Below, one piece after another: positions 19,828-61,143 of a stretch of 64,000 bases of DNA. Under the pieces are notes generated by a model. That model was given only the letters and a program-made list of their open reading frames with translations. It was not told where the DNA came from and did not search any database. The stretch is from NCBI GenBank assembly GCA_934101425.1, contig CAKOQQ010000001.1, positions 35,781-99,780 of the forward strand, given 5' to 3'. Source of the DNA: an uncultured Bacilli bacterium. Lineage in GTDB: Bacteria > Bacillota_I > Bacilli_A > RF39 > UBA660. Each line of letters opens with the position of its first letter. Within the stretch, counting starts at the first letter, position 1. A program made the position numbers and the translations under genes.

Positions 19828-21441
19828 TTATTCACTTAATTCTTTTTCTAATTTACCTTGTTTATCACCAAGTATACTTCTTTGTTCATTTACTTTATTT
19901 ATAGCAGAATTTATAGTATCTATATAAGTTACAAAGTTTGGTGTACCATTTGTTCTTACCCCAAGAGCTGATGATGTAAATGTATATTTTAGAAGTCCTA
20001 ATTCTTTATCAATCGAATTACCTATTTTTAATACTTGGATACTATTAAAAGTAGTTTCATTATATATTCTATCTATTTCATCTTGTAAAGCTACCATTTC
20101 CTCCATGATAGAATTTATATCAGAATTACTATTACCATTAGCAGCTTTAACTGATAATTCATTCATTCTTTGTAATATACTATGAGTTTCTGTTAGTGCT
20201 CTTTCCATTATCTTTATCGCACTAATTAGATTTCGTTTATATGAATCCATATCATCAGGGTTTAATTCTTTGCCTACTAATTTATCTAATATAACCTTAT
20301 TAGCAGTTATTTTATCATCAGTTATATTATTTATATCAATAATAGTTAAGCCTGTTGCACTAAATTTCAAACTAGAATCATTTACTGAATTAGCTATTTC
20401 ATCTAAATTTCTTTTAAATAAAGTATTTGCTTCTATAATAAGTGCTTTTTTATCTATTTCAGTATTAGTAGCCATTAAAGCTTGTACATGTAACTCTTGA
20501 GCTCTAGATAATACTTTAGTATATAAAGCTCTTTTACAAGCCTCATCTGCACATGATTCTAAAGATTTACTATATTCTAATGAATTTTGATATGCTCCAA
20601 ATATACTTCTTTGTTCACTTACTTTATTTATAGCAGATTCTATTCTTTTCATATAATCTTTAAAATCAGGAGTTGTTCTTTGCTTTACATCTAATCCTTC
20701 TGAATTAATAGTATATTTTAATAAATCTACTATTTCATTAAACATATTATCTTCTTGTAAAACTTTTTCATTTTGAAAAGATGTTTCATTATATATTCTA
20801 TCTATTCCATCTTGTAGCTCTATTAGTTCATCCATAATAGAAGCTATATCAGAACTTGTATTAGTATCATTTGCAGCTTTAACTGATAATTCATTCATTT
20901 TTTGTAATATGCCATGAGTTTCTGTTAGTGCTCCTTCAGCAACTATAATTTCACGTAATAATAAATCATTAAAATTGGCACTTGACTTACTAACACAACT
21001 AGCACTAGTAGTAAACTCTTCTATTAAAAATTTATCTTCTTCTATACTATAATAATTACAATATTTATCATTATAAAATACTGCTGACACTAGTAATCTA
21101 TTAGTCTTACGAATATATCCTGTAGTATCATTCAAAGCTTTATCCATACTTACCGTTTCATTTTCTACTGTTACACCTTTAAGTTCTAAAACATTAATTT
21201 TACCTTCTGTTAATGAATAATAACTATCTTTCTCATCACCATTTAAAAAATCATAATTATTTACACTTCTCATTACACTTTGTACAGAAGCTTTAAAAGC
21301 TTCTCTTTTTGAGTCTTCTACAATATTTAATACAGCAGGTACCGCTATTGCTGCAATTATTGCTAGTATTACTATTACTGCGAGTAACTCTATTAGTGTA
21401 AATCCTTTCTTACTTTTATAATTACCTTTTACTTTCTTCAT
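19828..21441 (-). CDS. Type IV pilin-like protein fused to two tandem flagellin D1-like units (pilin-flagellin chimera)
   Basis: The N-terminus MKKVKGNYKSKKGFTLIELLAVIVILAIIAAIAVPAVLNIVEDSKRE is a prepilin signal. The body contains AEGALTETHGILQKMNELSVKAANDTNTSSDIASIMDELIELQDGIDRIYNETSFQNEKVL. This is near-identical to the B. subtilis Hag D1 N-helix (AEGALTETHAILQRVRELVVQAGN...EIDGISNRTEFNGKKLL). It also contains IESAINKVSEQRSIFGAYQNSLEYS, matching the Hag D1 C-helix (AINQVSSQRAKLGAVQNRLEHT). A second unit follows (ALTETHSILQRMNELSVKAANGNSNSDINSIMEEMVALQDEIDRIYNETTFN; INSAINKVNEQRSILGDKQ). The flagellin D0 termini are absent. Confidence 0.85.
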   Translation of the reverse strand: MKKVKGNYKSKKGFTLIELLAVIVILAIIAAIAVPAVLNIVEDSKREAFKASVQSVMRSVNNYDFLNGDEKDSYYSLTEGKINVLELKGVTVENETVSMDKALNDTTGYIRKTNRLLVSAVFYNDKYCNYYSIEEDKFLIEEFTTSASCVSKSSANFNDLLLREIIVAEGALTETHGILQKMNELSVKAANDTNTSSDIASIMDELIELQDGIDRIYNETSFQNEKVLQEDNMFNEIVDLLKYTINSEGLDVKQRTTPDFKDYMKRIESAINKVSEQRSIFGAYQNSLEYSKSLESCADEACKRALYTKVLSRAQELHVQALMATNTEIDKKALIIEANTLFKRNLDEIANSVNDSSLKFSATGLTIIDINNITDDKITANKVILDKLVGKELNPDDMDSYKRNLISAIKIMERALTETHSILQRMNELSVKAANGNSNSDINSIMEEMVALQDEIDRIYNETTFNSIQVLKIGNSIDKELGLLKYTFTSSALGVRTNGTPNFVTYIDTINSAINKVNEQRSILGDKQGKLEKELSE

Positions 21442-47678: not shown

Positions 47679-48470
47679 TTATTTTTTTATTTTATTAAAA
47701 TTACAATGTTTGCACAATTTTTCACATTTTTTATTATTTTTAAAGCCATTTAACATATCAGTATATCGTTTACTATTTATAACATCACTAATATTATCTT
47801 TATAGATATTACCTAAAGTAATTATTCCATTACTATCTAGACAACAGGGTACTATAGAACCGTCTACTAATATACCTATATGATCTCTTAATGCGTAACA
47901 AGTTCCTTCATTGTATATATTGTTATTTACATCAGGCCAAATAAATTCTTCATCTATATCCAAAAAGATATTTTCTTTTATCTTACATTTTTTTAATTCT
48001 TCTATATTTGTATTAAAATACTTATTTATATATTTGAGTATATCTTTACTATATTTGTTTTCAGTCCAAAATCTTAATGAAATATAAGTGTATTTAGATA
48101 ATATATCTATACTATCTAAAATATTAGATATATATTTTTCTAAAGGAATATTACCACTATAGCTATGTAGTGATATATTTATTTGTCTTATGTTTTTATT
48201 ATTTTTAATCTTATCTATTAAATAGCCATTTGTAGTTATATTTATTTTATATCTTTTAGAAGCTACATCAATTATTTCATTTATATTAGGGTGCAATAAA
48301 GGTTCACCTAACACATGTAAATATAAATATTTAGTATAATTTTCTAACTTATCTAATATTAAATTAAAATTATCCAATGTTATAAATTCATTTTTTCTTT
48401 TATTATGTGGACAAAAATCACATGATAAATTACAATTGTTAGTTATTTCTATATAAACTTTTTTATACAT
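47679..48470 (-). CDS. Radical SAM protein with a C-terminal SPASM/twitch Cys cluster
   Basis: CNLSCDFC (CxxxCxxC) near the N-terminus, a GEPLL motif, and C-terminal Cys motifs (CYALRDH...VPCCLD...CEKLCKHC). 263 aa. Confidence 0.6.
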   Translation of the reverse strand: MYKKVYIEITNNCNLSCDFCPHNKRKNEFITLDNFNLILDKLENYTKYLYLHVLGEPLLHPNINEIIDVASKRYKINITTNGYLIDKIKNNKNIRQINISLHSYSGNIPLEKYISNILDSIDILSKYTYISLRFWTENKYSKDILKYINKYFNTNIEELKKCKIKENIFLDIDEEFIWPDVNNNIYNEGTCYALRDHIGILVDGSIVPCCLDSNGIITLGNIYKDNISDVINSKRYTDMLNGFKNNKKCEKLCKHCNFNKIKK

Positions 48471-48506
48471 ATTTACCTCTCTTAAACAAAAAAATAAACC
48501 ATAAGT

Positions 48507-48833
48507 TTATTTTTCATCTTTCTTTATTGCATTATATATACATGAATAACTTCTAGTGTTATAAAATTTACAAAATTTTCTAATACTAACAGTTGATTTT
48601 GAATATAATTTTCTTATTTTGTCTTTTTCTTCTTCTGATAAAGCGTTTATGGGTTTCCTATCTTTATTTCCATGAACCAAACTAATAGTATTATTTTCTA
48701 TTTGTTTTTTTAGTTTAAATATATATTTTGGATGGTAACCACATATTTCAGCTATTTCATTATAAGTTAAATAACTTTCTTTATTTAACTTCTTTTTTAT
48801 TAATTTAATAGCTTCTTCTTTATCATTTTTCAT
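48507..48833 (-). CDS. HTH-domain protein that resembles the N-terminal (OrfA-like) part of an IS-family transposase. A possible remnant.
   Basis: Its sequence (YLTYNEIAEICGYHPKYIFKLKKQ...HGNKDRKPINALSEEEKDKIRKLY) is HTH-like and resembles the DNA-binding part of an IS630/IS3-type transposase. A second short ORF of about 56 aa (MIEKILFDKDL...) lies just upstream at roughly 48840..49010. No catalytic domain follows either of them. Confidence 0.3.
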   Translation of the reverse strand: MKNDKEEAIKLIKKKLNKESYLTYNEIAEICGYHPKYIFKLKKQIENNTISLVHGNKDRKPINALSEEEKDKIRKLYSKSTVSIRKFCKFYNTRSYSCIYNAIKKDEK

Positions 48834-49048
48834 TTTATCACCTATATATTAATAACTTTATCATAACTAATCATTTTATATGTATCATTCATATCAGTTC
48901 TATAAAAAGCTTTTCTTTCTTTAGGATTATATTTTAAGAATAATATATTTATATTTTTTCTACCTATTACTTTTTCTATTAAGTCTTTATCAAATAATAT
49001 TTTTTCTATCATAACTTTCCCTTCTCGGGTAGTTATTATATATTATTT

Positions 49049-50353
49049 TTAATTTTTGTCAAATTCAAAGAAAACAATATAACTATTATTTGTAAGATAT
49101 TCATATACTTTATCATTAGTATCTAATATATTTTTCTTATCACTCACCATTAGTATATCATAACTACTAGTTTTTTTTAACTTATAATCGTATTTATCTA
49201 ATTTATAAGATTTATTATTAGTAGTTACTACAGAAAAATTATTAGAATTAGTATATAAATTTACTTTACCATCATAATTAAGAGTATCTATATATCTACC
49301 AAATATATCTACTACTATTATCTTACCATTTTCATAATTAAAGAATAATTTATTATCATAAATATTTAATGTATTTAAATAAGCATCATTTTCTAAATTA
49401 TTAGTATATAATTTATCAGCTAATCCGGATGTATTAAATATAGCAAAAGAGGCTACTCCCTTTATATTATATACATAGTAATTATTATTATAATATACTA
49501 GTTTTCCCGCTTTAAATCCATTTAATTTGTTATCGGCAACATCTAATTCAATTGTTTCTACTTCATCATCTATTACATTTATTTCTTTACCATCTATTAT
49601 TACTAATTTATTATCTATTATAAAGGCATTTGATACTATCATATCAGCACTTACCTTTTTTTGCCATACTTTAATTCCATTATTTAGTTTAAGAGTAAAA
49701 ACAGTTGCTGCATCATCATTTAAATAACCGATTACATAAATATCATCATTATTCTTAACAATATTAGTTACATCTATCCCTTTATCTTTTTCTAATCCAA
49801 AATCAGCGTATGAAATATCATATGACCATTCTAAATCCAAATCTTTATTAAATTTTAAAATAGAAGATGTTTTAGTACCATTACTAATATATGATGCACC
49901 AATATATCCATCGTCCACTTCTTCTAGTTTATATAAATTACCATTGCCATTTAAATTACCTATAACCTTTAATTTAAAATAAACTCCAGAATCATCTTTA
50001 CATGTACTATCTATAGAAATAGTATATACTCCATTATCTAATTTTTTATAAATCGATTTACCTTTACAATCATTACTTTTAACAATATCATTATTATTAA
50101 ATTCTTTTTCTTCTTCTACTTCTTCTTTTATAAAACTTTCAATATTATTTAATACTTCAATATTATAAGTAGTTGCTAGTGACTTTTTAACTTTTTCATC
50201 GTCATCTACTTTTATATTTATAGTTCCTATATTTACTTTTCTTTCTTCTTCTACTTTTTCTTTTTTATTACCATATTTATCTACCGCTACATAAATAGTT
50301 AATCCTACTATAAATATAAATATTATTCCTAATATTATTGTTCCTTTTTTCAC
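49049..50353 (-). CDS. Membrane-anchored hypothetical protein with a repeat-rich extracytoplasmic domain that may be a beta-propeller
   Basis: N-terminal transmembrane helix (IILGIIFIFIVGLTIYVAV) plus an N/Y/D-rich repetitive body. 434 aa. Confidence 0.35.
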   Translation of the reverse strand: MKKGTIILGIIFIFIVGLTIYVAVDKYGNKKEKVEEERKVNIGTINIKVDDDEKVKKSLATTYNIEVLNNIESFIKEEVEEEKEFNNNDIVKSNDCKGKSIYKKLDNGVYTISIDSTCKDDSGVYFKLKVIGNLNGNGNLYKLEEVDDGYIGASYISNGTKTSSILKFNKDLDLEWSYDISYADFGLEKDKGIDVTNIVKNNDDIYVIGYLNDDAATVFTLKLNNGIKVWQKKVSADMIVSNAFIIDNKLVIIDGKEINVIDDEVETIELDVADNKLNGFKAGKLVYYNNNYYVYNIKGVASFAIFNTSGLADKLYTNNLENDAYLNTLNIYDNKLFFNYENGKIIVVDIFGRYIDTLNYDGKVNLYTNSNNFSVVTTNNKSYKLDKYDYKLKKTSSYDILMVSDKKNILDTNDKVYEYLTNNSYIVFFEFDKN

Positions 50354-50393
50354 GTTATCACCTAATTAATTATATCATAAAAAAGCTAGAGAA

Positions 50394-52190
50394 TTAACTT
50401 TTCTTTTCTAGCATTTTTATTTTAACTCTTTCAGATATTAATCTAGATGTTTCTTTGTCATAACCTAATCTAATTTTTAATTCATCTATAGTTTCTTTAT
50501 TAAGATTACCACTTATTTTTAATACTTCAAATATTTCATCTATTAAAGCATCATATTTATCATCTATAGTTTTTAATTCTCTATCTATTTCTTTAACTCT
50601 TTTTTTATGCATACCTTTTACTACGCTGGCACTATTTAAATCAAGTGCACTAGTCATTTCACTATATACATCATCTACATGAGTTCTTGGTATACCATCT
50701 ATTTTTCCTTCTTTTTCTTCTTCGATTAAAGTAATATTTCTTTTACCTACATAACCTCTTTTTTTATCTATTAAATATACTGAATGACCTTGTCTTTGTC
50801 CCAAATAACAATTACCATAATGCCATGAATCAATACCTGTTAATGAAGCTGTTCTAAGTACTGTTACTTTATCAAATTTAGTTTCACTATCTTGATGTAA
50901 ATGTCCTACAAATACATATACATTTTTAGCTTTATTATATTCATTAGGATATTGATATTTTACTGCTTCTGCAATAACTTTATCAGAAAGATTTTTGCCT
51001 TCTGGATTCTTACCATGACTAAATACTATTAGATTATCACCAAAAGAATAACAAGTAGTATATCTTAAATCTTGATAACCAAAACTAACTTCAACTTTAG
51101 GATCATCTGTTAAATTATATAAATCATATAAATTTGTAAACAAACTAAAGCTTGATTTTTCATCATGATTACCTGGATTACCTTTAAGTATTACTTTATC
51201 AAATTCTCGCTTTAAAGTTTCAATCATTCTAATATATCCAACTTTACCCCATAAATAAACTTCTTTAAATCTTGTATCATTATTTTGAGGAGTACCTGCA
51301 GTAGTTTTATCATCTACAGTATCACTATTAAAGAAATCATTACCAACACCTAGTATTAAGTTAGATGCTTTTATTCTTCTTTGATAATCTACTATTTCTT
51401 CTACTACTTTTTTTATTCTATACATAGCTTGTTTTGTAGAATAATCTTCACTATCTACTATAGATGCTAATTTACCTAAATGAAGTTCAAGACCAGGGGA
51501 TACCATTAATAAATCTTTATCTAAATCTAAAGGAGTCATTTCTTCTTTATTAAATAAATCAAAAGGAGTTAACTTTCTTTGTTTTAAAAAATCACTTAAA
51601 AATTTATCACATTCTTCTTTACTATAAAATAGAATTGGATTTTTTCTTCTTCCTATTACTACAGTAAATTTATCATTTAATACTTTATTTAATTGATCTG
51701 TGCCATCACTATTTTTAGTTTTAACAGGGGTATTCCAACCACCCATTACTACTTTTTTTACTTCAAAATTACTAGGATCAAATCCTAAATAATTAAGTAG
51801 AAATGCTTCATTATTTATTTTTTCAAGTACTTTTCTTCTTATTTCTTCAGGACTATCTGTTAAATCAACATTAAATATATCCTTATAATCACTTTTAGGA
51901 ATTGATAATGTTCTAGTTAGTGGTGTATCACTATCAATAACTTCTTCATGTATTTCTTCTTTTTTCTTTAATTTTGGTGTGTACTTACAATATTCAAAAA
52001 ATAATTGTGGATTTACTGATGTTGTAAAATTAATTGATTTAAATCTCGATGATAATAAACTAGGTGTTATCTCTTTTTTCTCTATATCAAAATATATTTT
52101 AGCTCCTTCACTCCAAGTAGTAATTATTCCTTCATTTTTTAATGTACCTATATAAAAGATAAGTGTTTCATTTAATTCTATTTTCCCCAT
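50394..52190 (-). CDS. Calcineurin-like metallophosphoesterase domain protein, with N- and C-terminal extensions
   Basis: The central region has the GNDFF (GDxxD-like), GNHD and GHLH motifs of the metallophosphatase fold. 598 aa. Confidence 0.5.
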   Translation of the reverse strand: MGKIELNETLIFYIGTLKNEGIITTWSEGAKIYFDIEKKEITPSLLSSRFKSINFTTSVNPQLFFEYCKYTPKLKKKEEIHEEVIDSDTPLTRTLSIPKSDYKDIFNVDLTDSPEEIRRKVLEKINNEAFLLNYLGFDPSNFEVKKVVMGGWNTPVKTKNSDGTDQLNKVLNDKFTVVIGRRKNPILFYSKEECDKFLSDFLKQRKLTPFDLFNKEEMTPLDLDKDLLMVSPGLELHLGKLASIVDSEDYSTKQAMYRIKKVVEEIVDYQRRIKASNLILGVGNDFFNSDTVDDKTTAGTPQNNDTRFKEVYLWGKVGYIRMIETLKREFDKVILKGNPGNHDEKSSFSLFTNLYDLYNLTDDPKVEVSFGYQDLRYTTCYSFGDNLIVFSHGKNPEGKNLSDKVIAEAVKYQYPNEYNKAKNVYVFVGHLHQDSETKFDKVTVLRTASLTGIDSWHYGNCYLGQRQGHSVYLIDKKRGYVGKRNITLIEEEKEGKIDGIPRTHVDDVYSEMTSALDLNSASVVKGMHKKRVKEIDRELKTIDDKYDALIDEIFEVLKISGNLNKETIDELKIRLGYDKETSRLISERVKIKMLEKKS

Positions 52191-52865: not shown

Positions 52866-53957
52866 TTATATCATACTTTTTATTAAATCTACTTTATTTA
52901 ATTTTTCATAACTTAAATTATTTTTACCAAAATGTCCAAAACAAGTAGTTTTAGTATAATCTAAATGTTTTAGATCTAACTCACTAATTATATTTTTAAC
53001 ACTAAAATCAAATACTTTATTTATTATACCTAGTATTTTTTCTTCAGATATTTTATTTGTATTAAATGTATTTATACTTATAGATATAGGATTTTTAACA
53101 CCTATTAAGTATGATACTTGTATTTCTATTTTATCAGTTATACCAGCAGCTACTACATTTTTAGCTACATATCTTGCATAATAAGCAGCACTTCTATCTA
53201 CTTTTGATGGATCTTTTCCTGAAAAGGCTCCACCACCAACTTTAGCAAAAGAATGATAACTATCTACTACTATTTTTCTACCAGTTAATCCTGCATCACC
53301 ACTAAATCCCCCTATATTAAATCTACCTGTTGGATTAGTTATAAATTCATCTACAGATACATTATACTTATTACATATTTCTTTTGCTAATTTAATAATA
53401 ATTTTATCAGTTTCTTCTCTTTCTAACTCAGTATTTTGATAACAAATTGTAAAATTAGTTATTTTAATTAACTTATCATTATCATATAAACCAGTTATTT
53501 CAGCTTTACCATCAGGTAAAAATCTATTATCTTCTTTAACTAAATTAGCATATGCTTCACTAAATAATTGTAGTATTACCATAGAAACTGGTAAATAATA
53601 TTCGGTATCATTAGTAGCATAGCCAAACATCATACCATTATCACCAGCACCATTTACTTCTTCATTAGTACCAAGAGCTATATCAGTACTTTGAACTCCT
53701 AAATTATTTATTATTTCATAATTAGTATCATATCCAACAGAATCAAGTACAGCCTTAACTATTTTTTCTACGTTGATACTTGCTTTTGTTGTGACTTCTC
53801 CAGTTACAAATATTTTACCTTTACCACCACATACTTCTATACCACATCTTGAATTTTCATCAGACTTTAAACACACCTCTAAAATGGCATCACTTATTTG
53901 ATCACATACTTTATCTGGGTGTCCCCTAAATACTATTTCATTACTATATAACTTCAT
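52866..53957 (-). CDS. metK: S-adenosylmethionine synthase
   Basis: GHPDKVCDQISDA near the N-terminus and GGGAFSGKDPSKVDRSAAYYARYVAKNVVAAG near the C-terminus, both matching conserved MetK blocks. Confidence 0.9.
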   Translation of the reverse strand: MKLYSNEIVFRGHPDKVCDQISDAILEVCLKSDENSRCGIEVCGGKGKIFVTGEVTTKASINVEKIVKAVLDSVGYDTNYEIINNLGVQSTDIALGTNEEVNGAGDNGMMFGYATNDTEYYLPVSMVILQLFSEAYANLVKEDNRFLPDGKAEITGLYDNDKLIKITNFTICYQNTELEREETDKIIIKLAKEICNKYNVSVDEFITNPTGRFNIGGFSGDAGLTGRKIVVDSYHSFAKVGGGAFSGKDPSKVDRSAAYYARYVAKNVVAAGITDKIEIQVSYLIGVKNPISISINTFNTNKISEEKILGIINKVFDFSVKNIISELDLKHLDYTKTTCFGHFGKNNLSYEKLNKVDLIKSMI

Positions 53958-53989: not shown

Positions 53990-54115
53990 ATAAAGAAAAA
54001 ACACACTCAAAGATAACCATGAGTGTGTTATCTTATAGACTCTAGCATTACCACCTAACTAAATAGGTTGGTGTGATTTCATAGGGCTAGTCCCTCCATC
54101 ACTCTTTATAAGATG
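53990..54115 (-). ncRNA. SAM-I (S-box) riboswitch with an intrinsic terminator, in the metK leader
   Basis: Minus strand: CUUAUAAAGAGUGAUGGAGGGACUAGCCCUAUGAAAUCACACCAACC...GGUGGUAAUGCUAGAG...UAUAAGAUAAC, with P1 CUUAUA/UAUAAG and the GGAGGGAC-GCCC-AUGAA core. It is followed by the hairpin AACACACUCA...UGAGUGUGUU plus UUUUUU. Confidence 0.85.
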
Positions 54116-55099: not shown

Positions 55100-55675
55100 C
55101 TATAAATTATCTTTTATTTCACTAAATAAATCATATACATTATATCCAAGTAGTGAATCTATATACTCTTTTAATTTATATACTTCTTTAATATGATACT
55201 GTGTACTTTCTGTTACCCCTCTTCTTAAAATAATATCAATAAGTCTTTTATCTACTGTATTTACTACATTCGTACACATCAAATCACACAAATTTATAAT
55301 TTTTTCATAAATAGTATACTCATGATTTTTAATAAATTGTGTTCTAAATGGTATATCTTCTGGAAGACTTCCAGCTGTGCATAAATAATCATTATTTAAG
55401 TATGAATGAGTTAAACAAATATTGGCATATTCATCACTATATCCTAACTCTTTAATATAATTAAATCCATTTAAATCATGAAGTGGAAAACTACCAAATC
55501 TTTTACCAATATCATGAATATAACCTAATACTCTAGCTTTTTCTTTATCTAAATTTAATTTTTCTGCAATAACACTTGCAGTATCTCCAACACATATACT
55601 ATGGCTAATCCATCTATTATCAGGAGCTAAACTACCTTCTTCATTTAACAATTTTAAAGCTTCTTCTTTATTCAT
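55100..55675 (-). CDS. HD-domain phosphohydrolase (YqeK-like)
   Basis: HSICVGDTASVIAEKL...GYIHDIGK. 191 aa. Confidence 0.6.
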   Translation of the reverse strand: MNKEEALKLLNEEGSLAPDNRWISHSICVGDTASVIAEKLNLDKEKARVLGYIHDIGKRFGSFPLHDLNGFNYIKELGYSDEYANICLTHSYLNNDYLCTAGSLPEDIPFRTQFIKNHEYTIYEKIINLCDLMCTNVVNTVDKRLIDIILRRGVTESTQYHIKEVYKLKEYIDSLLGYNVYDLFSEIKDNL

Positions 55676-55774
55676 ACTATCACCTATTTAATTATATCAT
55701 ATTTTTTTACAAAAATATACAAACATTTGTTTGCTTTTAAACAAAATATATTGTATACTTAAATAGGTGGTAAT

Positions 55775-56980
55775 ATGGACATAAAAGAAAAATTAAAAAT
55801 ACTTGCAGATAGCGCTAAATATGATGCTTCTTGTTCATCAAGCGGTAGCAATAGAAAAGGAAGCTATGGAAATGCTAATATATCTGGTATATGCCATTCA
55901 TTCTCTAGTGATGGTAGATGTATTTCTCTTTTAAAAATTCTTATGACTAATATTTGTATATATGATTGCAAATATTGTATAAATAGAAGATCAAATAATA
56001 ATGTAAGAACTATATTTACTCCTTATGAAATATGTAATATTACTATGAATTTCTATAAAAGAAATTATATAGAGGGATTATTTTTAAGTTCTGGTATTAT
56101 TAAAAGTCCTGATTATACAATGGAAAAAATGATAGAAACGATAACACTACTTAGAAGAAAATACAAATTTAGTGGGTATATACATGCTAAAGCAATACCA
56201 GGTTGTAGTGAGGCACTCTTAAAAAAATTAGGATACTTAGTTGATAGGTTAAGTGCCAATATAGAATTACCAACTGATAATGGATTAAAATTACTAGCAC
56301 CAAATAAAGATTTAAATAAAGTAAGTAAAATTATGAAATATGTAAATACTAATAAAAATAAAAGTTTTGTTAGAGCTGGTCAAAGCACACAAATGATTAT
56401 AGGCGCCACAAATGAAAGCGATTTGGATATAATTAGTAAAAGTGAAAACTTATATAATACTTATAATTTAAAAAGAGTATTTTATTCAGCTTATATACCA
56501 GTTAATAAAGATAAAAATTTACCAGCACTTATAGTTCCACCATTAAAAAGAGAACATAGACTTTATCAAGCAGACTTCTTGCTTAGATATTATAATTTTA
56601 CTGTGGAAAACTTACTTGATAAAAATAATCCAAATTTTAATATACTTTTAGATCCAAAATGTGATTGGGCAGTAAAACATTTAGATGAGTTTCCAAAAGA
56701 AATAAATACATGCTCATATAATGACCTACTTAAAATACCAGGAATAGGAGTTTTAAGCGCTAAAAGAATAATATCATCTAGAAAATACTTTAATTTGGAT
56801 TTTAAAGACTTAAAGAAAATGGGTGTTGTTCTTAAACGAGCTATATATTTTATAACATGTAATAATAAATACTATATAAGTCATAAATATTTTAAAAAAA
56901 GTTTTATTGTGGAAAACTTATTATTAGAAGATAAAACTACTAAAATAGAAACTAATAATACACAACTTACATTATTTTAA
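55775..56980 (+). CDS. Putative DNA modification/repair radical SAM protein (TIGR03916-like)
   Basis: The Cys cluster CIYDCKYC, a size of about 400 aa, and a conserved operon partner (DUF4130) immediately downstream with an ATGA overlap. Confidence 0.6.
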   Translation: MDIKEKLKILADSAKYDASCSSSGSNRKGSYGNANISGICHSFSSDGRCISLLKILMTNICIYDCKYCINRRSNNNVRTIFTPYEICNITMNFYKRNYIEGLFLSSGIIKSPDYTMEKMIETITLLRRKYKFSGYIHAKAIPGCSEALLKKLGYLVDRLSANIELPTDNGLKLLAPNKDLNKVSKIMKYVNTNKNKSFVRAGQSTQMIIGATNESDLDIISKSENLYNTYNLKRVFYSAYIPVNKDKNLPALIVPPLKREHRLYQADFLLRYYNFTVENLLDKNNPNFNILLDPKCDWAVKHLDEFPKEINTCSYNDLLKIPGIGVLSAKRIISSRKYFNLDFKDLKKMGVVLKRAIYFITCNNKYYISHKYFKKSFIVENLLLEDKTTKIETNNTQLTLF

Positions 56981-57735
56981 TGAATAAATTATATACATAT
57001 AAAGATACTTTTAGTAGTTTACTAAGTTTAATAAAATATTTATCCACATTTAATATAAAAAATATAAATATTAAAAATGACTTATACACACCTAATTTAT
57101 TAGAAAGAGAGATATTTTTAGATATAAATACTCTAAATATAGAGGCAGTAATCATAAATGATATAGGCATAATTAACTTTAATGTACTATTTTACCTTTA
57201 TTTATCTAATGAAAAAAATAAAGAAAATATAATGTATTACTTTTATTTAAATGCATTAAGATATAAAGATACTATATTAAAAAGAAGAAATTTAAATTGT
57301 GTTACTGAAGCAAATAGAATTATCAAATATGTAAAAGGTGAAAATCATAAGTTTAAAGGATTTGTTAGATTTAAAGAACTTAATAGTAAAATACTTTATT
57401 CAGAAATAAATCCAACCAATAATATATTACCAATACTCTCTATTCATTTTAAAAATAGACTTAAAGAAGAATGTTGGATTATTAAAGATGTTAATAGAAA
57501 TATATATGCGTTATATGATAAAAAAGCTATACAAATAGTGAATGTGGAAAAAATCCCCTTAAATGTGGAAAACTTGAGTAATACCGAAATAGAAATGGAA
57601 ACCATGTGGAAAACTTTTTATAATACTATTGGTATAGAAGAAAGAAAAAATAATAGATGTAGAATGAACTTTATGCCTAAAAAATATTGGAAATACATTT
57701 TAGAAGTGAGGGATATAAATGAAGAAAGTAATTAG
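56980..57735 (+). CDS. DUF4130 domain protein (TIGR03915-like partner of the radical SAM protein)
   Basis: KGFVRFKEL...ILPILSIHFKNRL...CWIIKDVNRNIYALYD and a C-terminal ...MPKKYWKYI, the pattern typical of DUF4130. Confidence 0.55.
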   Translation: MNKLYTYKDTFSSLLSLIKYLSTFNIKNINIKNDLYTPNLLEREIFLDINTLNIEAVIINDIGIINFNVLFYLYLSNEKNKENIMYYFYLNALRYKDTILKRRNLNCVTEANRIIKYVKGENHKFKGFVRFKELNSKILYSEINPTNNILPILSIHFKNRLKEECWIIKDVNRNIYALYDKKAIQIVNVEKIPLNVENLSNTEIEMETMWKTFYNTIGIEERKNNRCRMNFMPKKYWKYILEVRDINEESN

Positions 57736-59206
57736 TGGAAATGAATTATATGACAATATGACAAAAGCAACAAGCTTAATTTGTAGTACTGTTAAAACTA
57801 CATTAGGGCCTAAAGGATGTAATGTTATAATTGATGAATCAAACTTATCACCATATATTACAAATGATGGTGTCACAATTGCTAATAATATTTGTAGTGA
57901 CGATGAAGTAATAAACGCTATACTAACTATTACTAAAGAAGCTAGTATAAAAACTAATAATGATGTTGGTGATGGTACTACTTCCACATTAGTACTTTTA
58001 GAAAAAATATTTAATGAAGGACTAAAAGAAATAAAATGTGGAAAAAATCCTATGATACTAAAAAAAGAGCTTTATGAAGATTTAGAAGATATAATATTAG
58101 AAATAAATAAATATAATAAGAAACCTTCTAATGATGATTTACTTAAAATAGCAACTATATCAGGTGGTAATAATAAAATAGGAGAAAATGTTACTAAGTC
58201 TTATTTAAAAAGTAATGAAATAGAAATTATAGAAGACACTGAAACTTATATAGAAGAAATAAATGGTTATACATTTGATACCATAATCGCAAGTCCATAT
58301 TTCTTCAAATATAATAAAGAACTATCATATAATAATTCTTACATTATACTTTTTGATAATGATATATGTAGTACCGAAGAAATCGCTAATATATTAAACT
58401 ATACAATAAATAATGATAGATCACTAATTATAGTAGCAAATGATTACAGTGAAAATTTTATAAATGAAACAATTAATTTATATTTAGATAGTGATATAAA
58501 AATATGTCTACTTAAAAATCCCGAATATGGCATAAGAAGATATCAACTATATGAAGATTTAAAAGCTATAACAAAAGCAAATATAACTAATGATATTATT
58601 ACAATAAACGATATTGGTACTATAAACACTATAAAAATAAATAATGAAAATACAAATATAATGTTTACATATGATAATGATATAAAAAATAGAATAAAAG
58701 AAATAACAAAAAGTGGATTTGATGAATACTATATAAGTCAAAAATTAGCAATGTTTACATCATCTCTTATAAAAATACATATTAGTGCAAATACAGATAC
58801 TGAAAGAAAAGAGATGAAAATGCGTTATGATGATGCCTTATGTGCTATAAGAGAAGCTAAAAATGGTATTATTCCTGGTAGTGGACTTATTTTATATCAA
58901 ATAAGTAACAAATGTAAAAATAAAATATTTAAAAACTCTCTTTCAGCTATTTTAGATCAAATACTATATAATGCCGGATTAGATGAAAATAAAATAAAAG
59001 ATTACATAAAAAGTAACAATTTCCAAAAAATATACAATATTATTAATGACATGTATGAAAGTGTAGATGATACTAGTGTACTAGATCCTACATCTGTGGT
59101 AATAAATAGCTTAGTAAATGCAACTTCCATAGCTAGTATGTTACTTACTACTACATCAATTATAGTAAATGAGCATATAGAAACTCACTATACAAATGAA
59201 ATTTGA
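57719..59206 (+). CDS. Divergent, truncated GroEL/Cpn60-like chaperonin paralog
   Basis: TLGPKGCNVIIDES (GroEL has TLGPKGRNVVLDKS). NDVGDGTTSTLVLLEKIFNEGLKEI (GroEL has NDAAGDGTTTATVLAQAI..EGLKAV). GKNPMILKKEL, ATISGGNNKIGENV, SPYFFKYNKE, and RYDDALCAIREAKNGIIPGSGLIL (GroEL has [25 protein letters not shown]). It is 495 aa, with no GGM tail. Its start overlaps the DUF4130 gene by 17 nt. Confidence 0.75.
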   Translation: MKKVISGNELYDNMTKATSLICSTVKTTLGPKGCNVIIDESNLSPYITNDGVTIANNICSDDEVINAILTITKEASIKTNNDVGDGTTSTLVLLEKIFNEGLKEIKCGKNPMILKKELYEDLEDIILEINKYNKKPSNDDLLKIATISGGNNKIGENVTKSYLKSNEIEIIEDTETYIEEINGYTFDTIIASPYFFKYNKELSYNNSYIILFDNDICSTEEIANILNYTINNDRSLIIVANDYSENFINETINLYLDSDIKICLLKNPEYGIRRYQLYEDLKAITKANITNDIITINDIGTINTIKINNENTNIMFTYDNDIKNRIKEITKSGFDEYYISQKLAMFTSSLIKIHISANTDTERKEMKMRYDDALCAIREAKNGIIPGSGLILYQISNKCKNKIFKNSLSAILDQILYNAGLDENKIKDYIKSNNFQKIYNIINDMYESVDDTSVLDPTSVVINSLVNATSIASMLLTTTSIIVNEHIETHYTNEI

Positions 59207-59252
59207 TTTTTTTAATTAAACATGCTAAAATACATAACTCGTAGGTGATTAT

Positions 59253-59900
59253 ATGGAATATGAAAATAAAGAGTTATGTTCTTCTTGTAAAGGTATGTGC
59301 TGTAAGAAAAGTGGTTGTGACTACTTTGTTAGTGATTTTGAAAGAATTACAAAAGATGAAATATTAAAAGCTCTTTTACCTGGTAAAATATCAATTGTTT
59401 CAGCATTTAAAAAAAGTGTTATAAATGGTAAAGTTATACTTACACCATTCTTATATTTACGAGCTAGAAATAAAGATAGAGATATAGTAGACTTATTCTC
59501 TATGAAAAAAACTTGTTCAATGCTTACTGATACTGGATGCTCATATAGTTTAGAAGATAGACCTGGTGGAGGCGTAAACCTTATACCTAAGAAAAACGGT
59601 TGTAAACCTCTTAAAGATCCTATTGAAGAAATGAGAAAATGGGAACCATATCAAGGAGTACTAGCAAAAATTGTAAAAAGAATAACAGGCAAAAGTGTTG
59701 ATAAAGTTTTAAGAGAAGATGTTGAAGAAGTATTGTATCAAATATTAACAGAACAATTTGATGGAATAAGTAAAAGAGAAATAGCTGATATAGTAAGTGG
59801 ATTACAAGATTTAATATTAGCATTTCCTAATGAATATGAAAACGCTAAAATAAGAGCAAAGAAATATATTAAAATATACGAAAAAAAGACTACTGAGTAG
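59253..59900 (+). CDS. YkgJ-type CxxCxxCC zinc/iron-chelating domain protein (FliB/UPF0153-like family)
   Basis: N-terminal CSSCKGMCCKKSGCDY. 215 aa. It is the last gene of the radical SAM / DUF4130 / GroEL-like operon. Confidence 0.5.
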   Translation: MEYENKELCSSCKGMCCKKSGCDYFVSDFERITKDEILKALLPGKISIVSAFKKSVINGKVILTPFLYLRARNKDRDIVDLFSMKKTCSMLTDTGCSYSLEDRPGGGVNLIPKKNGCKPLKDPIEEMRKWEPYQGVLAKIVKRITGKSVDKVLREDVEEVLYQILTEQFDGISKREIADIVSGLQDLILAFPNEYENAKIRAKKYIKIYEKKTTE

Positions 59901-59910
59901 TCTTTTTATT
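59884..59910. terminator. Bidirectional terminator AGACTAC-tga-GTAGTCT plus a T-run
   Basis: It overlaps the stop of 59253..59900 and shares its stem sequence with the hairpin at 52207..52232. Confidence 0.5.
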
Positions 59911-59916
59911 ATCTAA

Positions 59917-59993
59917 TGGGGCGACATAAGGGAATCGAACCCTTGCATAACGGAACCACAATCCGCCGTGTTAACCCCTTCACCAATGTCGCC
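59917..59993 (-). tRNA. tRNA-His (anticodon GTG) with an encoded G-1 and CCA
   Basis: Minus strand: G-GCGACAT-TG-GTGA-AGGGGTTA-ACAC-G-GCGGA-TTGTGGT-TCCGT-TATGC-AAGGG-TTCGATT-CCCTT-ATGTCGC-C-CCA. The 7-bp acceptor stem, T-loop TTCGATT, anticodon loop with GTG, G-1:C73 and discriminator C are hallmarks of tRNA-His. Confidence 0.85.
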
Positions 59994-60053
59994 ATGTCAT
60001 ATAGACATATATATAATATCAGTTTTTTATTGTTTTGGCAATACTTTTTTTTA

Positions 60054-60080
60054 ATAATTAAAACACCTATACACATAACA
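60054..60080 (+). promoter_or_regulatory. Candidate sigma-E-like sporulation promoter upstream of cotJ (ATAATT-14-CATAACA)
   Basis: -35-like ATAATT at 60054..60059, a 14-nt spacer, and -10-like CATAACA at 60074..60080. The sigma-E consensus is ATATT-14-CATACA-T. By analogy, cotJ is sigma-E dependent in Bacillus. Confidence 0.3.
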
Positions 60081-60114
60081 CCTAATTACATAAATTATGT
60101 TAGGAGGTAAGTCA

Positions 60115-60573
60115 ATGAATAATAATTATTATAATCAAAATATGTTTGATACTACAAACTTAACTAGTGACTATTATAATTATGTAAATAATAATTATAA
60201 TCAGCCATATAATCAAAATATGAAGAATATAAATATATATAACCCATATCAAGGTTATATAAGAGGTAATATGTTTCCTGATTTATATAACACATATAAA
60301 ATAAATGCACCTTTTGAAATTGAGCCATTAAATGAACAGGCTGATATGCTTACTAATATTGACGCTTATTCATTTGCATTAAAAGACTTAAATTTATATT
60401 TAGATGTTTACCCTAATGATAAAACTATGATTGATTTATATAATAGATATTTAATGCAAAAAAAGCAAATTGTTAGAGATTACGAAAATAAATATGGGCC
60501 TTTAACATTAGATAGTGAATCATTAAATAAATATCCTTGGGCGTGGGATGGTAAACTCCCATGGGATAGATAG
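60115..60573 (+). CDS. cotJB: Spore coat protein CotJA-CotJB fusion with an N/Y-rich low-complexity N-terminus
   Basis: The N-terminal part has the CotJA motif PYQGYIRGNMFPDLYNTY. The C-terminal part, AYSFALKDLNLYLDVYPNDKTMIDLYNRYLMQKKQIVRDYENKYGPLT...PWAWD, matches CotJB. I trimmed the start to the ATG after the AGGAGGT RBS. Confidence 0.75.
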   Translation: MNNNYYNQNMFDTTNLTSDYYNYVNNNYNQPYNQNMKNINIYNPYQGYIRGNMFPDLYNTYKINAPFEIEPLNEQADMLTNIDAYSFALKDLNLYLDVYPNDKTMIDLYNRYLMQKKQIVRDYENKYGPLTLDSESLNKYPWAWDGKLPWDR

Positions 60574-60582
60574 GAGGTTAAT

Positions 60583-61143
60583 ATGTGGGCATATGAAAAA
60601 AAATTACAATATCCTGTTAACATAAACAAAAAGGATTTGAAATTAGCTAAATATTTACTAAGTCAATATGGTGGTCCTGATTCAGAACTTGCTGCTGCTA
60701 CTAGATATCTAAATCAAAGATATACTATGCCAGATGATAAGGGGAAAACACTTCTTACTGATATTGGTACTGAAGAATTAGGTCACTGGGAAATGATCGC
60801 CGCTATGATATATCAACTTATGAAAGGTGCAACTATAGAAGAATTAAAAGAAGCTGGATTAGGTGCAAATTTTGCACAACACGATCATGCTCTTTTCATA
60901 ACAGATGCTAATGGAGTACCTTTTACTACTTCTTATATAGAAGCTAGTGGAGATTTTATAGCTGATTTAGAAAGTGATATGGCAGCTGAACAAAGAGCTA
61001 GAGCTACTTATGAACATTTAATGGATTTAACTACTGATCCAGAAGTAATAGCACCACTAGCATTTTTAAGACAAAGAGAAATTGTTCATTATCAAAGATT
61101 TAAAGAACTAAGAAATTACTATTTAGAAAATAATACTAAATAG
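60583..61143 (+). CDS. cotJC: Spore coat protein CotJC (manganese catalase family)
   Basis: MWAYEKKLQYPVNI...ELAAATRYLNQRY...EELGHWEMIAAMIYQL. 186 aa, directly downstream of cotJB. Confidence 0.85.
   Translation: MWAYEKKLQYPVNINKKDLKLAKYLLSQYGGPDSELAAATRYLNQRYTMPDDKGKTLLTDIGTEELGHWEMIAAMIYQLMKGATIEELKEAGLGANFAQHDHALFITDANGVPFTTSYIEASGDFIADLESDMAAEQRARATYEHLMDLTTDPEVIAPLAFLRQREIVHYQRFKELRNYYLENNTK

Follow-up and report, generated by a model that had tools for sequence, protein, structure and literature searches.

A GroEL-derived protein in a radical SAM–DUF4130 operon of uncultured gut Bacilli with a LexA-type operator

Why does a relative of GroEL lie in an operon that begins with a radical S-adenosylmethionine (SAM) enzyme? 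This question is raised by a locus in a stretch of 64,000 nucleotides from an uncultured Bacilli bacterium (GenBank assembly GCA_934101425.1, contig CAKOQQ010000001.1, positions 35,781 to 99,780), which we call the window and which has a GC content of about 25%. A first-pass annotation had described here four translationally coupled genes, encoding a TIGR03916-like radical SAM protein, its DUF4130 partner, a diverged GroEL homologue and a protein with a cysteine motif, and it had supposed that the chaperonin-like protein is dedicated to the radical SAM pair and is distinct from the housekeeping GroEL. Several questions follow. Is the third protein a chaperonin? Is its association with the pair maintained in other genomes? 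How is the operon controlled? Is this the only GroEL of its host, and what would it do beside an enzyme that is predicted to act on DNA? Our analysis shows that positions 55720-59206 are a self-contained three-gene operon (hereafter, the module) in which the GroEL-derived protein is translationally coupled to the pair, and the chaperonin relative seems to have been turned into a dedicated part of a DNA-damage response.

All four plus-strand open reading frames (ORFs) were recovered as first described (Table 1). The product of gene 1 scores 593.8 bits against TIGR03916 (cut-off 343.5), and its CIYDCKYC motif, of the [4Fe-4S]/SAM type, corresponds to C61-x3-C65-x2-C68; no variation is seen in 75 loci at these three cysteines or at three more in the N-terminal part, C20, C40 and C49. 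A DNA-binding helix-hairpin-helix (HhH) is present in its C-terminal part (HHH_3 match, residues 310-349), and this tail resembles the HhH domain of ComEA (E=0.009). Gene 2 is indeed the DUF4130 partner: it matches TIGR03915 with 194 bits (cut-off 112.25) over profile positions 1-242 of 243, and PF13566 with 147.6 bits (cut-off 27). It matches the DUF4130 profile only, having no fused family-4 uracil-DNA glycosylase (UDG) domain. A fused or adjacent UDG is common in this family without being universal; here, UDG genes lie close to the module in no more than 4 distinct loci among about 90 (L001, sampled again as L002 and L003; L006; L024; L076). The junction of genes 1 and 2, for which an ATGA overlap had been reported, is in fact TAATG, so that the radical SAM stop codon and the DUF4130 start codon share 1 nt; the 17-nt overlap reported for genes 2 and 3 is real, with GAGGGA upstream of the gene 3 start. 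Coupling applies to the first three genes and not to the fourth, which follows after a 46-nt gap and is absent from all other module loci (tblastn).

How widespread is this arrangement? A protein search with gene 3 yielded more than 1000 relatives, the best 120 of which are unnamed proteins of 486-526 aa with 45-54% identity. With each GTDB species represented by one genome, a scan gave 286 stretches encoding gene 3 relatives; the best 80 were examined, and all of these come from metagenome-assembled genomes (MAGs) of uncultured bacteria from the gut of humans, rabbits, goats and mice, labelled as Bacilli, Tenericutes, Mycoplasma or Erysipelotrichaceae. The conservation sample consists of these 80 species MAGs and about 10 metagenome loci. 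When it was searched by tblastn with the window proteins, the order radical SAM, DUF4130, chaperonin was found in every related locus with enough upstream DNA, so that the co-occurrence expected of four genes holds for three of them and fails for gene 4. Identity to the window proteins across loci is 69-76% for the radical SAM protein, 44-59% for DUF4130 and 43-54% for the chaperonin homologue, and the mean pairwise identities in 75 loci are 75, 54 and 49%, respectively. The same order is found in the most distant members (P0175, 39% identical, P0166 and P0283; range 37-39%), where the codons overlap too. The radical SAM and DUF4130 genes overlap by 1-8 nt in 69 of 77 loci, and the DUF4130 and chaperonin genes by 4-41 nt in 81 of 83 (4 nt in 39 and 17-41 nt in 42).

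The surroundings of the module are not conserved. On the long contigs L001, L004, L006 and L007 the three genes abut or overlap and their neighbours are entirely different, and clustering of three ORFs on each side revealed no conserved neighbour or fourth gene, the commonest flanking family being present in 14 of 85 loci. A LigD-like gene (3′-phosphoesterase plus primase-polymerase) lies within three genes of the module in 10 of the 85, in varying orientation (for example, L007 11573-12952 and L030 9028-10446; 8 further loci). Because only these three genes stay together amid shuffled surroundings, selection, rather than mere descent, is the likely cause of the linkage. A whole clade of chaperonin homologues, from at least 80 species of uncultured low-GC gut Bacilli, is thus characterised by this arrangement.

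Is the third protein a chaperonin? It matches Cpn60_TCP1 (PF00118) over its full length with 121.7 bits (gathering threshold 34.3), residues 23-484 corresponding to profile positions 3-488 of 490. Against the equivalog model TIGR02348 it scores 270.9 bits, below the cut-off of 582.1; five general NCBIfam GroEL models give 244-293 bits and a sixth (PRK14104) gives 207, with cut-offs of 352-1041, and no model of NCBIfam release 20 recognises the protein above its cut-off. Its sequence matches in the PDB are GroEL or Hsp60 (137-221 bits). An AlphaFold 2 model based on 39 family sequences (predicted local distance difference test score, 88) has equatorial, intermediate and apical domains. The top Foldseek matches of this model are all GroEL or Hsp60 (E about 1e-39), with template modelling scores of up to 0.83 against ATP-bound mitochondrial Hsp60 and 0.79 against GroEL-ADP, and the predicted monomer includes the two terminal strands (N and C) of the inter-subunit sheet. 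Compared with GroEL reference sequences (that of Escherichia coli having been checked at 18 landmark residues), the protein is 27% identical to GroEL of E. coli and 29% to that of Bacillus subtilis; those two share 62%. Gene 3 encodes a group I chaperonin homologue, strongly diverged and scoring below the cut-offs for a canonical GroEL.

Which residues of GroEL have been kept, and which have been lost? In 121 family members, the ATP site is kept (T30, G32, P33, D52, D87, G88, T89, T90, D398, G414, G416, N479 and D495): D52 (to E) and N479 are each replaced in one member and the other positions never, and G415 is S or A in the family. The R197-E386 salt bridge is lost, R197 being replaced by T in 110 of the 121 and E386 by T, K or I. 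Residues of the apical domain that bind GroES and substrate are changed as well (Y199 to L/I; L234 to A/S; E238 to N in 120 of 121; V264 to S), and Y203, F204 and L237 persist. Among the inter-ring contacts, A109, R452, E461, S463 and V464 have not been conserved, E434 and D435 fall in a 12-residue deletion, and the GGM tail, whose absence had been noted in the first reading, is replaced by a conserved ending ...[LIV]INE[YH].NN.N....YNE[LI] (59150-59206, family alignment). Base composition is not the cause of these losses, because GroES-linked GroELs that are also AT-rich (P0339, P0285, P0355 and P0311) keep E386, Y199 and E238 and mostly R197 and L234, the last position being aliphatic (L, V or I) in these controls. 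Divergence is greatest in the apical domain, where identity is 24% to B. subtilis GroEL and 44% among family members. Like GroEL, the protein is acidic (isoelectric point about 4.7; apical domain about 4.9), and its charge indicates no DNA-binding surface, all domains being acidic except the near-neutral intermediate domain.

Where does the family end? An exhaustive HMMER search, run over 1.84 billion cluster representatives, found about 55 of them at 250-410 bits, all of about 500-520 aa and with the NE-type tail; below them is a heterogeneous set of at most 227 bits, which includes canonical GroELs at about 200 bits. The least derived members, P0175, P0166 and P0283, are 37-38% identical to B. 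subtilis GroEL and have GGG at 414-416. Among the P0175 matches, identity to B. subtilis GroEL is at most 40% for module-linked proteins and at least 53% for all others, and Cpn10 is encoded immediately upstream in all three of the latter that were checked (L094, L180 and L183). In a neighbour-joining tree, which has long branches and is indicative only, the derived clade was recovered in 100 of 100 bootstraps and the clade together with an intermediate group in 66 of 100. A phage origin was considered and rejected: IMG/VR contains no family member, the best match there being 32% identical, and PADLOC gave nothing. One of the controls deserves a separate remark. L183 (5540-7379) is a contig of 24.5% GC with very tightly overlapping genes and a canonical groES-groEL pair, the GroEL of which is only 54% identical to that of B. 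subtilis and has no GGM tail; therefore, AT-rich reduced genomes can hold quite diverged yet GroES-linked GroELs.

How is the operon controlled? The 99-nt region upstream of gene 1 holds the palindrome CAAACATTTGTTTG, which overlaps a putative promoter, TTTGCT-18-TGTATACT. The palindrome occurs once in the 64-kb window, with 0.06 occurrences expected by chance. The best sites in 75 distinct upstream regions have the consensus C-[G/A]-A-A-C-A-[A/T]-[A/T]-T-G-T-T-T-[G/A]; the site lies at -54 to -59 from the radical SAM ATG in 72 of the 75 loci and has at most one mismatch to the core GAAC-N4-GTTT in 71 (background, 0.039 per 107 nt), and a TATAAT-like -10 is found at the same distance from the ATG in other loci. 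In the least derived group, the sequence upstream of L092 is CAAACAATTGTTTA. The consensus CGAACAAATGTTTG fits the B. subtilis LexA operator GAAC-N4-GTTC, and the GAAC-N4-GTTT boxes of Clostridioides difficile lexA, recA and ruvC are an even better match (PMC4234289). Moreover, the TIGR03916/03915 operon has been predicted to be LexA-regulated in Verrucomicrobia (PMC4951493). The controlling inverted repeat of chaperone expression (CIRCE) was found neither in the window (at most 3 mismatches) nor in about 95 module loci, and was seen only upstream of canonical groES, in L094-L096. These sequence features make SOS (LexA) control of the operon a strong inference, and the operon is probably induced by DNA damage.

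The palindrome might instead be the operator of a regulator other than LexA, in which case the operon would lie outside the SOS response and the rest of our model would be unaffected. About half of the sites have CAAAC, and not CGAAC, in the left half, and the examined DNA includes no lexA, recA or uvr promoter of the lineage. However, this alternative would have to explain the fit of the consensus to the LexA boxes of two Firmicutes, the better one to that of C. difficile, as well as the overlap of the site with the -35 region, which is typical of repressor sites, and the reported LexA regulation of the same gene pair in another phylum. We hold it to be improbable. Other SOS genes with the same box were sought in the examined DNA and discarded as candidates, as each further match was the same palindrome on the other strand. 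An HD-domain gene (55100-55675, minus strand) diverges from the same 99-nt region, with the palindrome 58 nt upstream of its ATG. It might be co-regulated by the palindrome; this neighbour is not conserved in other loci.

Is gene 3 simply the sole GroEL of the lineage, a degenerate housekeeping copy that stands beside the radical SAM pair by descent? The absence of an adjacent groES, already noticed in the first-pass annotation, extends to the whole window: no GroES-like sequence was found there or in any module locus. About 1 Mb of related loci and the window itself contain neither a second Cpn60 nor any Cpn10, no module locus examined has a second Cpn60 gene, and no canonical groESL could be traced to a module-bearing genome. 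Among the candidates, P0274 is a canonical groES-groEL pair in an unrelated MAG, P0343 is Fusobacteria-like, and P0285 (35% GC) and P0339 (24.5% GC) have Cpn10 upstream and flanks only 30-40% identical to module-bearing loci. Some Mollicutes, relatives of these organisms, are known to lose groESL. It is difficult, however, to reconcile a housekeeping copy with a linkage that outlasts complete shuffling of the flanks and maintains overlapping start and stop codons, or with a LexA-type operator in place of CIRCE, since a repressed promoter is ill suited to an essential chaperonin. The 49% mean identity in one Bacilli group, compared with 62% between E. coli and B. subtilis across phyla, means that the gene 3 family is far less conserved than a usual housekeeping GroEL, and the residues for GroES contact and ring contact have been lost. 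The presence of cotJB and cotJC also suggests a sporulating, typical Firmicute, which would be expected to keep groESL. Operator type, residue loss, fast evolution and strict linkage all point indirectly against a housekeeping role, and we regard this explanation as highly improbable. The same features, namely a linkage conserved between shuffled flanks, a LexA-type operator instead of CIRCE, loss of GroES and ring residues with retention of the ATP site, and fast evolution, lend support to the earlier supposition that the protein is dedicated to the radical SAM pair and distinct from the housekeeping GroEL. The first-pass terms 'paralog' and 'assembly or maturation factor' apply to it only putatively.

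What, then, might the three proteins do together? What the sequences show is the anatomy of the operon, the linkage of its genes, the preservation of the ATP site and the conservation of the operator, and a model can be built on these to which we assign about an even chance: the operon would be an SOS-controlled repair cassette, the third subunit of which is a GroES-independent, client-dedicated derivative of a chaperonin. An outline of the model is as follows: LexA would repress the operon, and DNA damage would derepress it. The radical SAM–DUF4130 heterodimer would then act on damaged or modified DNA, as suggested by an AlphaFold 3 model that supports the heterodimer (bioRxiv 10.64898/2026.08.19.745780) and by the ComEA-like HhH tail of the radical SAM protein. 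The chaperonin derivative would still bind and hydrolyse ATP, without GroES and not as a canonical double ring, and its dedicated task would be to fold, assemble or stabilise the complex. Its client would be a partial triosephosphate isomerase (TIM)-barrel iron-sulphur enzyme, with which it would be made in fixed proportion, and it would hold the position of third component that a UDG domain occupies in other phyla. Two precedents fit this model. TIM-barrel folds are over-represented among the obligate clients of GroEL, and client-specific GroEL paralogues are retained by several bacteria. In the SOS response of E. coli, UmuC is stabilised by GroE, on which the levels of Pol IV also depend (PMC6590174).

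The main rival model gives the same protein a different role. Rather than being a chaperone for the enzyme, the GroEL-derived protein might be a working ATP-driven ring or clamp subunit of the repair machine. It could remodel or unfold proteins on DNA, such as DNA-protein crosslinks, stalled complexes or spore DNA-binding proteins, or it could present DNA to the active site of radical SAM–DUF4130. The chaperonin relative would in this case have been recruited as an integral ATPase subunit that acts with the radical SAM enzyme on DNA-bound proteins or nucleoprotein, and not in the folding of new proteins. In favour of such a role, the genes are coupled strictly and in a stoichiometric way, which would suit subunits of one complex; remodelling has gone furthest in the apical domain (24% identity to B. 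subtilis), with new invariant residues such as the N in place of E238; GGM has given way to a new conserved C-terminal motif, NEY..NN....YNE[LI]; 10 of 85 loci have LigD genes close by; and the position is held in other phyla by a UDG domain, which acts on DNA (PMC4951493). Set against these points, the protein has gained no positive charge (isoelectric points of about 4.9 for the apical domain and 4.7 for the whole protein), no added DNA-binding domain was found, and 6 of 8 positions of the substrate groove are still hydrophobic, as in a polypeptide binder. We know of no chaperonin with a role in a DNA machine. A subunit of this kind is therefore unlikely in our estimation; if it did exist, it would be the first protein of the chaperonin family in nucleic-acid transactions.

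The model of a client-dedicated chaperonin derivative in an SOS cassette has its own difficulties. That the radical SAM–DUF4130 pair is the client we infer from gene linkage only. Two of the 8 classical residues of the substrate groove are now small or polar, the other 6 being still hydrophobic, and general polypeptide binding, as far as the sequence tells, may be impaired. The acidity of the protein fits a chaperone and says nothing about the bound partner. None of the AT-rich canonical GroELs among the P0175 matches could be linked to a module-bearing genome, and the window and the examined loci contain no lexA, recA or uvr gene with which the palindrome could be compared. There is also one exception to the linkage: in L084 (4977-7548; mouse-gut MAG MGBC100111) the radical SAM gene is cut to its last 94 codons, the DUF4130 and chaperonin-like genes are intact and the sequence has no Ns, so that the remnant could reflect a deletion, pseudogenisation or an assembly artefact.

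Table 1. Features of the operon and its immediate surroundings (positions in the window).
Feature	Position	Strand	Details
LexA-box-like 14-bp palindromic operator CAAACATTTGTTTG	55720..55733		Fits the Firmicutes LexA (Cheo) box; overlaps -35 region
Putative sigma-70 promoter	55730..55759	+	TTTGCT, 18-nt spacer, TG-TATACT (extended -10); consensus match only
Gene 1, TIGR03916 radical SAM (rSAM_link_UDG)	55775..56980	+	401 aa ORF
Gene 2, TIGR03915/DUF4130 partner, no UDG domain	56980..57735	+	251 aa ORF
Gene 3, diverged group I chaperonin (GroEL) homologue	57719..59206	+	495 aa ORF
Gene 4, CxxCxxxCC protein, outside three-gene unit	59253..59900	+	215 aa ORF
tRNA-His	59917-59992	-	3′ of gene 4

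To what does gene 4 belong, if not to the module? It had been taken for a YkgJ/FliB-family protein with a CxxCxxCC motif, an assignment that has to be given up: PF03692 does not match it at E≤10, and the motif is CxxCxxxCC (C9-x2-C12-x3-C16-C17). No match was found in Pfam, NCBIfam, PHROGs, PADLOC, PDB or IMG/VR, the sole hit at E≤10 being DUF7659 (E=0.016). Downstream of gene 4 and tRNA-His are cotJB and cotJC (stretch 59253-61143). A homologue of gene 4 with 64% identity, found in Joint Genome Institute (JGI) metagenomes (L188 and L189), lies directly upstream of cotJB-cotJC; on its other side are minus-strand genes and no module. Since the homologue adjoins cotJB-cotJC without the module, gene 4 belongs to the cotJ cluster and not to the radical SAM operon. 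It may be an undescribed partner of the CotJ spore-coat genes that perhaps stands in for cotJA.

Some other features of the window were noticed in passing. A SAM riboswitch (RF00162, 67.4 bits; 54030-54114, minus strand) lies upstream of metK (52866-53957). A 537-aa protein (19828-21441, minus strand) has a prepilin-type N-terminal methylation motif at residues 11-34 and two flagellin-N-like stretches (about 143-234 and 368-472), an odd combination of pilin and flagellin. At 47679-52190 (minus strand), a radical SAM/SPASM protein of 263 aa adjoins two small ORFs (108 and 56 aa), and the cluster also holds proteins of 434 and 598 aa without family matches; it may be a peptide-modification cluster.

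The components of the operon are of known kinds, specialised GroEL paralogues on the one hand and the radical SAM–DUF4130 SOS cassette on the other. We did not find their combination described, and the publications found on DUF4130 and TIGR03916 make no mention of a chaperonin. It gives a new handle on the radical SAM–DUF4130 pair: folding or assembly of the enzyme may be difficult, or an ATP-driven partner may be required, and this could explain why the pair has resisted characterisation. Gene 3 is in addition a natural example of GroEL divergence, useful for the question of a minimal chaperonin, and the predicted SOS regulon of uncultured gut Bacilli is extended.

How does the module compare with known systems? 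Client-dedicated GroEL paralogues include rhizobial groESL copies that are co-regulated with nif or nod genes, Mycobacterium GroEL1 (mycolate synthesis), Myxococcus GroEL2 and Chlamydia GroEL2 and GroEL3. Like these, the gene 3 protein keeps the ATP site, has a divergent apical domain and C-terminal tail and is associated with a single pathway; unlike them, it is far more diverged (27-29%), is codon-overlapped inside the operon of its putative client, has no groES, and is linked to DNA repair or modification, apparently with a LexA-type operator in control. With the cassette of TIGR03916, TIGR03915 and family-4 UDG, the operon shares the same two adjacent proteins in the same order, predicted to form a heterodimer, but DUF4130 is here without a fused UDG and the GroEL-derived protein is the constant third gene. 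The GroEL homologues of phages EL (gp146) and OBP (PDB 6hdd and 6tmt) are GroES-independent and without the usual double-ring behaviour, as we would expect of the gene 3 protein, which nevertheless is not closely related to them, matching them at 47-63 bits compared with about 186-221 bits for cellular GroELs. A functional parallel is offered by E. coli GroEL/ES, on which UmuC and Pol IV, as SOS-induced proteins, depend for their stability (PMC6590174); there, however, the chaperonin is the housekeeping, heat-shock-regulated GroE, whereas here it would be a separate, specialised copy inside a predicted damage-inducible operon.

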